NCBI GenBank assembly: GCA_934561515.1
Contig: CAKTGM010000002.1
Span: 45,384 to 109,383 of the forward strand
DNA length: 64,000 nucleotides
Source of the DNA: an uncultured Oscillospiraceae bacterium
GTDB taxonomy: Bacteria > Bacillota > Clostridia > Oscillospirales > Oscillospiraceae
Direction of reading: 5' to 3'
Below the pieces are notes generated by a model. That model was given only the letters and a program-made list of their open reading frames with translations. It ran no database searches and was not told where the DNA came from. Position 1 is the first letter of the stretch. Each line of letters begins with the position of its first letter. The position numbers were made by a program, and so were the translations under genes. Positions 46,201-48,004 of this stretch are shown one piece after another.

Positions 46201-46288
46201 CCGAGCCTGAGAAAAGGAAGCCCGAAAGGGCTTCCTTTTTTGCTTGCCACCCTCGTAGGGGGGCGCGGGGGGGCAGCGCCTGCTGGCG

Positions 46289-46330
46289 CTGCACGAACAA
46301 GGGAGGGATATCTCTTTTTAAAAAGAGATA
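46289..46330. repeat. Perfect 42-bp palindrome AAGGGAGGGATATCTCTTTTT|AAAAAGAGATATCCCTCCCTT
   Basis: 21/21 inverted repeat with no mismatch; left boundary of the symmetric element. Confidence 0.7.
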
Positions 46331-46350
46331 TCCCTCCCTTAGACCCACCC

Positions 46351-46598
46351 AGAGAAAATTTGCATTGGCAGTTTGTGGCTTGAAGAGCTGCGCAGCCTGC
46401 GGAATCAGGTGCGGTGTACGTGGCTTCGCCACGAGTCCCTGCAAGACGTTACCAACGGCAACCGCGCCCTACTCCGTGGGGCGCGAGTGACGCTCCCTCG
46501 GCGGCAGACTGCGGTGCGGGCGGCGGCATTGCTGCGCTCGCCGCCTTTTGATGGGTGATGCGGGGGACGGGGCGGCATTGCTGCGCTCGCCGCCGCTG
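46351..46598. repeat. Left arm of a long imperfect inverted repeat (about 250 bp; partner at 47531-47790)
   Basis: The reverse complement matches 47531-47790 with blocks of 24-28 identical nt (e.g. GACTCGTGGCGAAGCCACGTACACCGCA; GGCGGCGAGCG.AGCAATGCCGCC twice per arm). Confidence 0.7.
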
Positions 46599-46751
46599 TT
46601 AGGATTCTGCTGTGATATAGATATCTTCGGCCTGCTGTTGGGCGGCGATTAGTAAGTCTTTTGCATCGCCATAGTTTTGGGTCTCGATTTTTTCGAGCGC
46701 ATCGGTCACCGCGTTGAATAGCGTAGTATACATTTTTTGATAGTCTTCCAT
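46599..46751 (-). CDS. Small acidic helical protein, 50 aa (paralog L; MEDYQKMYTTLFNAVTDALEKIETQNYGDAKDLLIAAQQQAEDIYITAES)
   Basis: AAGGAGGG SD 7 nt upstream; about 65% aa identity to the 49-aa ORF at 47381-47530 on the opposite strand; abuts the left inverted-repeat arm. Confidence 0.55.
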   Translation of the reverse strand: MEDYQKMYTTLFNAVTDALEKIETQNYGDAKDLLIAAQQQAEDIYITAES

Positions 46752-46855
46752 GATAGAACCCTCCTTAACTCTTTTTGGTTATTTTAACTCATAAGGGTTA
46801 ATCTTTTCAAGAGAAAATCGCTATTCTTTATGAAAAGAAAGCGGGGGTGGTCGTG

Positions 46856-47098
46856 ATGACAGTAGGCGAAGCCGTGCGCCGACGCATTTTGACACTGTGT
46901 GAAGAACGGAATATCACAATCAACCGCTTGAGTATTTTGAGCGGTATTACGCAATCCACGCTCAACAACATTATAAGTGGACGGAATCACACGACTACCG
47001 TTGCAACAATCAAAAAGGTTTGTGACGGTCTGAGTATTACCGTCGATGAGTTCTTTTGCCCTGAATATTTTCACGATCTGGAGCAGGAATTAAAATGA
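46856..47098 (+). CDS. XRE-family (Cro/CI-type) HTH transcriptional regulator, 80 aa
   Basis: HTH_3 signature (ITINRLSILSGITQSTLNNIISG); GGGGGTGG SD; convergent with the RHH gene and sharing terminator hairpin 47099-47125. Confidence 0.7.
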   Translation: MTVGEAVRRRILTLCEERNITINRLSILSGITQSTLNNIISGRNHTTTVATIKKVCDGLSITVDEFFCPEYFHDLEQELK

Positions 47099-47120
47099 AA
47101 CGACCGCGTCAGCGGTCGTT

Positions 47121-47288
47121 TCATGCTTGCGGGAGATTTTTCAGCGCATAGTCAATACACTGGTTGATAAATTCACTTCGGCTCATGTTGAATTTCGCAG
47201 CGGAAGCATCGATCTGCGCCAGCTTATCAGGCGCAATGCGGATCGTGATCGGCTCTTTGGTATATTGCTTCGGGATGAAATCAGACAT
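47121..47288 (-). CDS. Ribbon-helix-helix (CopG/Arc-like) DNA-binding protein, 55 aa
   Basis: Beta strand then two helices (PITIRIAPDKLAQIDASAAKFNMSRSEFINQCIDYAL); AAGAGGTGA SD 5 nt upstream of ATG; direct repeats ATTCTAAAT x2 plus an inverted repeat GTATGCT/AGCATAC in the promoter region 47295-47355. Confidence 0.65.
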   Translation of the reverse strand: MSDFIPKQYTKEPITIRIAPDKLAQIDASAAKFNMSRSEFINQCIDYALKNLPQA

Positions 47289-47380
47289 GGTAATCACCTC
47301 TTGCAATATAGTATGCTGTAGTGTATTCTAAATATAGATTCTAAATTAGCATACGTTTCAGCCTACAAAAGGAGGACAAG

Positions 47381-47530
47381 ATGGATTATCAGAAAATGTA
47401 TACGACATTGTTCAACGCCATCACGGATGCATTGGAGCAAATGGAATCCCAAAATTTCGGTACTGCCAAAGAAACCCTCATTGCCGCCCAACAAGAAGCG
47501 GAAGAAATCTATATGTCAGCAGAATCCTAA
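47381..47530 (+). CDS. Small acidic helical protein, 49 aa (paralog R; MDYQKMYTTLFNAITDALEQMESQNFGTAKETLIAAQQEAEEIYMSAES)
   Basis: AAAGGAGGA SD 5 nt upstream; paralog of the 50-aa ORF at 46599-46751; abuts the right inverted-repeat arm. Confidence 0.55.
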   Translation: MDYQKMYTTLFNAITDALEQMESQNFGTAKETLIAAQQEAEEIYMSAES

Positions 47531-47790
47531 CCGCGGCGGCGAGCGAAGCAATGCCGCCCGTCCCCCCGCAGATGCTTCCTCGAATTGGCATCATCTCCCC
47601 AACAGGCGGCGAGCGAAGCAAAGCCGCCGATGCGCAGGCAGTCCGCCGCCAAACTCCCGTCACTCGCGCCCCACGAAGTAGGGCGCGGTTGCAACATGAA
47701 CCGACACGCAGAAGACTCGTGGCGAAGCCACGTACACCGCACTTACACTGCGCAGCGTGTGCAGTCCTTCAAGCTGCAAACTGCCAATGT
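47531..47790. repeat. Right arm of the long imperfect inverted repeat
   Basis: Reverse-complement partner of 46351-46598. Confidence 0.7.
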
Positions 47791-47832
47791 CGGGGGTCGA
47801 GGGGAACGCCCCTCGTCCTTCTCTGGGGGATA

Positions 47833-47872
47833 CAAAGGGGGTATTCTCTTCGAGAAGAGAATACCCCCTTTG
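47833..47872. repeat. Perfect 40-bp palindrome CAAAGGGGGTATTCTCTTC-GA-GAAGAGAATACCCCCTTTG
   Basis: 19/19 inverted repeat; right boundary of the symmetric element; a partial third copy (GAGAATACCCCCTTTT) at 47976-47993. Confidence 0.7.
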
Positions 47873-48004
47873 CATGGCAGTGGCGCAAAGAGCTGCACTA
47901 TCCATGCAGCGCCGCTGGCGCTGCAACCTCCCGCCCCCACGAAGGGGGAATCAAAAAGGAGCATCCTCTTTGGAAAGAGAATACCCCCTTTTTGCGTGGC
48001 CGAT

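Follow-up and report, generated by a model that had tools for sequence, protein, structure and literature searches.

A cargo-carrying member of a dispersed, hairpin-rich inverted-repeat family, probably resembling mobile insertion cassettes, downstream of glmS in an uncultured Oscillospiraceae bacterium

The spacer between glmS and an Sm_multidrug_ex gene was analyzed in a stretch of 64,000 nucleotides of an uncultured Oscillospiraceae bacterium (contig CAKTGM010000002.1, positions 45,384 to 109,383; the whole stretch is called the window, and positions are counted from its first letter). From ~46245 to ~47995 this spacer is filled by one cargo-carrying element of 1.75 kb, in which two long inverted-repeat arms ending in perfect palindromes enclose four small open reading frames (ORFs) and no others: two micro-ORFs, a gene for an XRE-family helix-turn-helix (HTH) regulator and a gene for a ribbon-helix-helix (RHH) regulator. 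The architecture is far beyond chance, as seen from the folding of the right arm (z = -6.0) and from its recurrence in many other genomes. With a probability of roughly 0.7, the block is a cargo-carrying member of a dispersed, transposase-less, hairpin-rich inverted-repeat family of gut Oscillospiraceae of the ER4/Hominicoprocola type, similar to miniature inverted-repeat transposable elements (MITEs) and mobile insertion cassettes (MICs).

The glmS locus and the organization of the element

Exact-sequence look-up located both micro-proteins on many human-gut metagenome contigs, in which the synteny was always identical (alr, pemK, nrdR, glmS, the module, Sm_multidrug_ex and infC-rpmI-rplT), and the right flank of the window showed 85% identity to contigs of Hominicoprocola fusiformis and ER4, so that the window belongs to a relative of this genus. 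The coding core of the element has a G+C content of ~40-45%, compared with ~60-65% in the host. No transposase or recombinase gene was found inside the window element (ORF listing and Pfam, in agreement with a first-pass annotation made from the sequence alone) or inside other cargo copies, and the ORF listing of the flanks of the element in the window contained no recombinase gene. In one Hadza metagenome strain, a gene for a 379-aa tyrosine recombinase (Phage_integrase) lies between rplT and a Gate-domain gene, ~3 kb from the element (L002 1302-2441 / L012 8931-10070); this gene is absent from the window and the other contigs. The 5′ leader of glmS carries the glmS ribozyme/riboswitch (RF00234, 44093-44249, plus strand, 73 bits, E = 5e-17).

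All features listed in the first-pass annotation, that is palindromes, arms, micro-ORFs and the convergent XRE and RHH genes with their common hairpin, are present in the sequence (Table 1). The perfect 42-bp left palindrome had been placed at 46289-46330, which is 10 nt off its actual position, and the identity of the two micro-ORFs was measured as 73% instead of about 65%. Two GGCGGC..GCCGCC hairpins with GNA-type loops are located in the left arm (46521-46545 and 46571-46594) and GGCGGC..GCCGCC hairpins are also found in the right arm at 47535-47558 and 47605-47628, while an extra hairpin CGAGGGGAACGCCCCTCG (~47798-47815) is present in the right arm and missing from the left one. The mirror symmetry reaches beyond the palindromes (46249-46298 versus 47898-47948), and the outer left modules also flank other copies of the family. 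The degenerate second copy of the right hairpin T may serve as the terminator of the Sm_multidrug_ex gene.

Each micro-ORF is divergent from one of the regulator genes. In control region 1, a promoter-like site for micro-ORF 1 (TTGAAA-18-TAAAAT, 46810-46781, minus strand) and an inverted repeat TTAAC..GTTAA were found, and the XRE regulator is also called as an 80-aa gene in metagenome contigs. Control region 2 contains the ribosome-binding site of micro-ORF 2 and two direct repeats ATTCTAAAT within an inverted repeat TATGCT..AGCATA; a promoter-like site for the RHH gene lies at 47332-47305. The repeats in both control regions may act as operators, and the hairpin between the convergent regulator genes is probably a bidirectional terminator. 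The RHH protein gave weak matches to RHH_1/NikA in Pfam, to Arc-like/CopG-like families in PHROGs and to VapB/aCcr1 in NCBIfam.

The window copy is, as judged from sequence identities, a pair of different family cassettes (micro-ORF 1 with XRE, and RHH with micro-ORF 2) placed back to back with one central hairpin in common. They are regarded as two separate cassettes that were joined because micro-ORF 2 has a closer counterpart in another genome (L061, 90% identity) than in micro-ORF 1 (73%), and because the XRE and RHH regulators are unrelated to each other; the RHH protein has a 94% identical copy in L074. These identities do not support the earlier view that the block arose by an old local inverted duplication.

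Table 1. Features of the glmS-Sm_multidrug_ex region of the window
Feature	Position	Strand	Remarks
glmS	44356-46200	+	ORF and repeat reading of the window
glmS terminator hairpin	46212-46239	+	12-bp perfect stem, then T run; host flank, left limit of the element-filled spacer
Outer left modules	46249-46298		small hairpins CCCTCGTAGGG and GCAGCGCC..GGCGCTGC (46273-46292); mirror 47898-47948
Left terminal hairpin T, variant GGGAGGGATATCTC	46299-46340		perfect 42-bp palindrome, 21+21 nt, 100%
Left arm	46341-46598	-	nhmmer score 198, positions 5-241 of the hidden Markov model (HMM); HMM core 46302-46515
Micro-ORF 1	46599-46751	-	50 aa, acidic, net charge ~-7, predicted two-helix hairpin
Divergent control region 1	46752-46855		sequence reading
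XRE-family HTH regulator	46856-47098	+	80 aa; Pfam HTH_26 7e-10, HTH_3 1e-6
Hairpin common to convergent XRE and RHH genes	47095-47124		13-bp perfect stem; terminator-like on minus strand
RHH regulator	47121-47288	-	55 aa; 61 aa if TTG at 47306 is the start
Divergent control region 2	47289-47380		sequence reading
Micro-ORF 2	47381-47530	+	49 aa; paralogue of micro-ORF 1, 73% identity
Right arm	47531-47832	+	nhmmer score 241; HMM core 47634-47871, hairpin T thus included
Right terminal hairpin T	47833-47872		perfect 40-bp palindrome
Outer right module	47873-47953		part of a ~120-nt unit: GTGCAGCTCTTTGCGC-type segment, hairpin GCAGCGCC..GGCGCTGC (47906-47925), CCCCCACGAAGGGGG; 120-nt repeat spacing
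Degenerate second copy of right hairpin T	47954-47991		120 nt from the first; abuts the Sm_multidrug_ex stop codon
Sm_multidrug_ex gene	48005-48496	-	right-hand neighbour of the element
Inverted-repeat block	46363-46401 / 47751-47789		82%
Inverted-repeat block	46409-46437 / 47714-47742		29 nt, 100%
Inverted-repeat block	46458-46512 / 47638-47692		85%
Inverted-repeat block	46559-46745 / 47384-47570		187 nt, 77%; extends into the micro-ORFs

The dispersed repeat family and its cargo

When one genome of each species was scanned for a 25-nt sequence of the arm hairpin that is conserved best, matches were obtained in at least 115 stretches of H. fusiformis CLA-AA-H188 and H269, Oscillibacter sp. 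ER4 and related metagenome-assembled genomes (MAGs). Among the matches listed, ~38 belong to H. fusiformis CLA-AA-H188, ~27 to strain H269 and ~14 each to an Oscillibacter sp. ER4 MAG and another Oscillibacter MAG, with the remaining ones in related Oscillospiraceae/Clostridiales MAGs. Many of these listed matches are located at most ~100 nt from contig ends and therefore carry the signature of a multicopy repeat. Copies were also seen in MAGs labelled Alloprevotella and Collinsella (L037, L086, L096, L130), which are most likely mis-binned Oscillospiraceae contigs and not true hosts.

The HMM of the arm gave 291 matches and recognized both ends, inverted to each other, in the window element as well as in over 100 further copies. 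The arm of the family is G+C-rich and ~240-330 nt long and consists of small palindromic hairpins in a row, with the ~40-bp terminal palindrome at its end. In the commonest form, with ~60 pairs, a partial arm and a full arm stand inverted to each other at a distance of 100-250 nt; this short form spans ~560 nt, is non-coding and has a unique interior that is conserved. In about 13 genome copies, as in the window copy, two full arms are separated by 370-1170 nt, with one or two regulator/micro-protein cassettes between them. The arms and palindromes, which had been taken for private insulating boundaries of the block, are thus ends of a high-copy dispersed repeat, and the view of a discrete accessory module instead of an assembly artefact was supported. 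The first-pass annotation had also considered a match of the arms to a known repeat family: a repeat family was found, but it is apparently an undescribed one. No description of it was found in the searchable literature (including that on MITEs with Oscillospiraceae and that on Hominicoprocola), and in Rfam there was no family for the window arms or for three short elements, with sub-threshold chance matches to microRNA/sRNA hairpins only. The arms are absent from the plasmid database, in which one weak match was obtained, to the XRE region, in a Subdoligranulum plasmid. In viral collections the arms are at most marginal: in IMG/VR the arm motif occurs in 9 contigs, where it probably represents host flanks, and in INPHARED unannotated faecal virome contigs were the only matches.

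Cassettes with arms and terminal palindromes were identified at unrelated loci, between an FAD-dependent gene and glnS (L028, L033; P0060, P0117) and between pgi and rpsT (L029; P0058). The position downstream of glmS, to which meaning had been attached as an attTn7-equivalent site, is therefore incidental, since the same type of element occurs at these and other loci. A census of the small ORFs between arms revealed that a cassette consists of a small regulator divergent from a small helical protein. The regulators are XRE or RHH proteins of several unrelated subfamilies, the small proteins belong to the 50-aa family or to a related 64-aa family, and an element contains either a single cassette or a back-to-back pair, with both orientations occurring.

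At the FAD-dependent gene/glnS locus, two genomes (L028 and L101) are 90-96% colinear through flanks, arms and micro-ORF, and one of them has an XRE gene where the other has an RHH gene. At the pgi/rpsT locus, one or two cassettes of differing types are present among genomes. Since regulators or cassettes differ at the same locus while the arms and flanks of L028 and L101 are colinear, cargo has been exchanged between copies, which would most simply be explained by recombination within the common arms and micro-ORFs.

Mobility, folding, micro-proteins and alternative explanations

Among relatives, orthologous intergenic sites differ in whether they contain an element. The ybeY-era spacer of the window (54311-54473) holds the host terminator alone and represents an empty site; in a close relative, the MAG HGM13126 (L067, flank 95% identical), and in H. 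fusiformis (L041), a short element of ~800 nt separates this terminator from the stop codon of ybeY. A second empty site was found in the window at ~55618-55753, upstream of a recO-like gene, and at the equivalent position H. fusiformis has a short element (L041 3875-4434, L065) and the MAG UMGS1263 a solo arm (L140). In an ER4 MAG no element adjoins the Sm_multidrug_ex gene. The module is consequently not an invariant part of the core genome, as had been anticipated.

Several points weigh against a mobile, self-regulated cassette. With regard to current mobility, the glmS element looks fixed in the species of the window (~20 of 22 contigs). A target-site duplication was not found, and no direct repeat at a fixed offset was enriched in 37 complete elements; the flanks of filled and empty sites are too diverged for reading the junctions, and no conserved flanking tetranucleotide was seen. 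No recurrent transposase-like ORF was detected within ~4 kb of 115 copies (8-kb loci only), and clustering of paralogues among the ORFs that flank these copies returned orthologous housekeeping genes only. The outer limits are fuzzy and modular, like those of clusters of repetitive extragenic palindromic (REP) sequences and bacterial interspersed mosaic elements (BIMEs), and so spread by recombination or gene conversion fits as well as transposition. A consensus terminator scan of the window called no terminator at the terminal palindromes, and control of the micro-ORFs by XRE and RHH is deduced from the gene arrangement alone.

Two contigs among the 22 (L156, L157) are exceptions, in which Sm_multidrug_ex is joined through repeat sequence to other genes. 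In L156 (3995-4560), five tandem units of ~120 nt, each with hairpin T and two small hairpins, follow downstream of an identical Sm_multidrug_ex gene, and M20 peptidase and mreB genes come after them in place of the cassette and glmS. In L157, a window-like arm is joined to a short-type interior and gyrA/gyrB. These joins are either rearrangements at repeats or chimeric assemblies.

The alternative that survives best, and which we nevertheless consider unlikely, is that the arms are host-domesticated REP/BIME-type palindromes that have lost their mobility or never had it, with roles in transcription punctuation, mRNA stability or binding of nucleoid proteins, and that cassettes landed between them or were spread by homologous recombination or gene conversion. 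The modular and variable outer ends (hairpins X, Y and T; the ~120-nt unit repeated five times in L156), the negative searches for a target-site duplication and a linked transposase, the fixation in the window species and the documented exchange of cargo by recombination are all in line with this explanation. However, an inverted core of 240 nt on each side together with a conserved unique interior far exceeds a REP unit, whole elements are cleanly present or absent at orthologous sites, the cargo differs from the host in G+C content, and the dozens of copies in one clade suggest a burst.

An alignment of 61 distinct arms was used for testing three hairpins for covariation. Paired cells accounted for 98.2%, compared with 40-57% when the partners were slid, and cells with double changes numbered 195, compared with 0-29; the observed covariation score was reached in 0 of 500 shuffles. 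In the terminal palindrome, compensatory changes were found in 11 of 19 pairs. The compensatory changes lead from Watson-Crick to Watson-Crick pairs, with G-U in ~5 of ~1,150 cells of the terminal hairpin. The folding z-score of the right arm was the same with RNA and with DNA parameters. The most conserved small hairpins have the GNA-type triloops C-GAA-G and C-GCA-G; Hirao and colleagues reportedly found such triloops, in d(GCGAAGC) mini-hairpins, to be unusually stable in DNA. The near-pure Watson-Crick covariation therefore points to a constraint on the arm hairpins at the level of the DNA palindrome, as a hairpin or cruciform, and not on one transcribed strand, which in turn suggests an enzyme that recognizes folded DNA ends.

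The same data bear on a second explanation, of lower probability again, according to which the arms are functional structured RNAs, for example long 3′ untranslated regions of the micro-ORF mRNAs or independent small RNAs, and the family spreads as an RNA gene. Each arm follows directly after the stop codon of a micro-ORF with no canonical terminator between them, the fold is very stable as RNA, and three hairpins covary strongly. Against this stand the nearly exclusive Watson-Crick changes, as expected of a palindrome kept on both DNA strands, the equally exceptional folding with DNA parameters and the lack of any Rfam match. Moreover, the arms are found both ways round with respect to adjacent genes, and in single-cassette or short elements an arm that stands behind a terminator or without an upstream promoter is equally conserved.

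The micro-proteins were characterized by homology and profile searches. More than 200 homologous clusters of ~50-aa proteins with 74-96% identity were found, and a profile search of 1.84 billion representative proteins yielded 1,945 clusters at E <= 1e-3 and 425 at <= 1e-10. The median ratio of nonsynonymous to synonymous substitution rates (dN/dS) of 22 distinct micro-ORF coding sequences was 0.135 (dS 1.4), which argues that the micro-ORF is a real gene under purifying selection, as had been assumed. In an AlphaFold2 (AF2) model, micro-ORF 1 forms a two-helix hairpin (helices 2-23 and 27-49, predicted local distance difference test score 96.5). No family match was obtained in Pfam, PHROGs, NCBIfam or PADLOC, a comparison of the profile with PDB sequences gave nothing meaningful, Foldseek against PDB returned generic helical hairpins only, none at E <= 0.001, and no description of the protein was found in the searchable literature (including the peptide motif).

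A shorter relative with the pattern LFNAxTDA...AQxxAEExYI, at 24-38 bits, is encoded on about 60 IMG/VR phage contigs, which are 25-45 kb in size (e.g., L181 ~3995-4117). The phage relative is a lone gene on the opposite strand between tail-fibre/XkdX-like and holin/amidase genes, with neither arms nor regulator, a position that is moron-like by analogy. By sequence similarity, the micro-protein is thus assigned to a large unannotated family common to chromosomal repeats and phages, and our best guess at its function is that of a mobile-element accessory, e.g., an antagonist of a regulator or defence protein.

It is improbable, slightly more so than the RNA explanation, that the cargo pairs are toxin-antitoxin or addiction modules which stabilize the element or the locus, with an RHH or XRE antitoxin and the micro-protein as toxin, or the reverse. 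RHH and XRE are classic DNA-binding folds of antitoxins, the genes are small and paired with interchangeable regulators, and weak matches to the VapB, BrnA, HigA, MqsA and HipB antitoxin models of NCBIfam were obtained; every one of these matches lies far below the curated cut-offs. The genes are, however, transcribed divergently and not as a bicistronic operon, the four libraries searched contain no toxin family for the micro-protein, which is a 50-aa acidic helical hairpin in the AF2 model, and its phage relatives stand alone without a regulator; a type II system was rejected on the grounds of the divergent genes and the missing matches.

Although the block lies directly downstream of glmS and long inverted repeats surround a 1.1-kb segment, a decayed Tn7-type, CRISPR-associated transposon (CAST)-type or other site-specific insertion or integrative island, or an invertible switch (inverton or shufflon) between the arms, some of which had been put forward earlier, is already contradicted and very improbable, with no tns, cas, integrase or invertase genes, with ends that belong to an Oscillospiraceae repeat family at many non-glmS sites, and with one and the same orientation in all ~30 contigs of the species.

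Relation to known systems and proposed mechanism

The closest concept is that of MITEs and MICs, e.g., MIC231 of the Bacillus cereus group (PMC3129680, PMC4337579, PMC5444012). The first-pass annotation had found no MITE-type element to match, but the family behaves like a MITE with passenger genes: it has inverted terminal repeats, no internal transposase and many dispersed intergenic copies, differs in presence at orthologous sites and carries passenger genes between the same ends in a minority of copies. Unlike in a MITE or MIC, the arms are ~240-330 nt of several covarying hairpins instead of a short terminal repeat derived from an insertion sequence (IS), a target-site duplication (37 elements) and a cognate IS (loci around 115 copies) were not found, and the copies exchange their cargo, a micro-protein cassette that regulates itself. 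A palindrome-associated transposable element (PATE) derived from IS200/IS605 was considered and rejected: hairpins are present, but the ends are inverted over ~240 nt and there is no conserved flanking tetranucleotide. An integron gene cassette was likewise dismissed, with copies dispersed singly in intergenic regions and no integrase nearby.

With REP, BIME and REP doublet (REPIN) elements, which were reportedly linked to REP-associated tyrosine transposases (RAYTs) by Bertels and Rainey in 2011 and by Nunvar and colleagues in 2010, the family shares hairpin-forming palindromic units in inverted pairs, modular mosaics at gene ends, a majority of gene-less copies that are presumably mobilized in trans, and the constraint on hairpins at the DNA level. 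In contrast to them, the unit is ~10x larger with a conserved non-palindromic core, can carry genes and resides in Clostridia, and no RAYT gene was identified in the loci around repeat matches. BOX elements of Streptococcus pneumoniae and Correia elements of Neisseria are, like this family, high-copy, modular and hairpin-forming intergenic repeats of one lineage. They are 100-300 nt long and gene-less, the Correia elements having 26-bp terminal repeats and TA duplications, and both can affect the transcription of neighbouring genes; the Oscillospiraceae element differs from them in its far larger size, its conserved core and its ability to carry genes.

Similar to the pdif modules of Acinetobacter plasmids and to integrative mobile elements exploiting the host XerCD (IMEX), the family comprises recombinase-less gene modules that are bounded by inverted recombination sites, with differing cargo at the same position in different replicons. 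Unlike these, it is chromosomal and dispersed, and no dif-like 28-bp site was recognized in the arms; the sole link to Xer is the model of an Xer activation factor, to which an HTH gave a weak match of a generic kind (E = 0.003, below the cut-off). The cargo resembles phage morons, anti-CRISPR (Acr) proteins with their associated regulators (Aca) and SinI/SinR in that a small, acidic, fast-spreading protein stands beside an interchangeable HTH or RHH regulator, and the micro-protein relatives are, as with morons, lone opposite-strand genes in the phage tail/lysis region. In contrast to Acr-Aca and SinI/SinR, the genes are divergent and not in one operon, and no sequence or fold match to Acr, SinI or any other named family was obtained.

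For the MIC-like element, the following mechanism is proposed. The arm hairpins would act as DNA, in single-stranded or cruciform form, and an enzyme whose gene lies elsewhere would recognize them as the ends of the element when moving or copying it. Each small regulator would repress two promoters, that of its own gene and that of the divergent micro-ORF, by way of the repeats of the ~100-bp control region. The cargo would be reshuffled by recombination between copies, and the outer palindromes may in addition act as a transcriptional buffer towards the adjacent genes. A more far-reaching proposal, which is doubtful at present, is that the family is a new class of transposase-less mobile cassettes whose arms are recognized in the form of folded DNA hairpins by an enzyme that is not linked to the element (host or helper; HUH/Y1, Xer or similar) and serve as landing pads for swapping self-regulated micro-protein genes, with the micro-protein being a new accessory effector, e.g., an antagonist of a regulator or defence system.

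Two further repeats were noted elsewhere in the window. A 59-nt direct repeat (55239-55297 and 55451-55509; 90% identity, 212 nt apart), which ends in GACGAGCAGTAAAAAA, resembles the 3′ ends of two small paralogous genes arranged in tandem. A 41-nt hairpin-containing sequence, GATTTGAATTGCTTTCGCGTCTGCGGGCGCGAAAGGCTGCG, is present in two copies (18997-19037 and 19072-19112) with 93% identity, 75 nt apart.

Oscillospiraceae of the ER4/Hominicoprocola type are common in the human gut and difficult to assemble, and a 0.5-1.8-kb repeat in dozens of copies explains many contig breaks and possible chimeric joins such as those of L156 and L157. For the glmS locus itself a false lead has been removed, as there is no Tn7-like biology at this site. 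The large micro-protein family shared with phages is worth following, and the near-pure Watson-Crick covariation of the arms offers a testable handle on DNA-hairpin-dependent mobilization in Clostridia. The element shows tiny regulated genes that ride on non-autonomous repeats and are exchanged between copies.

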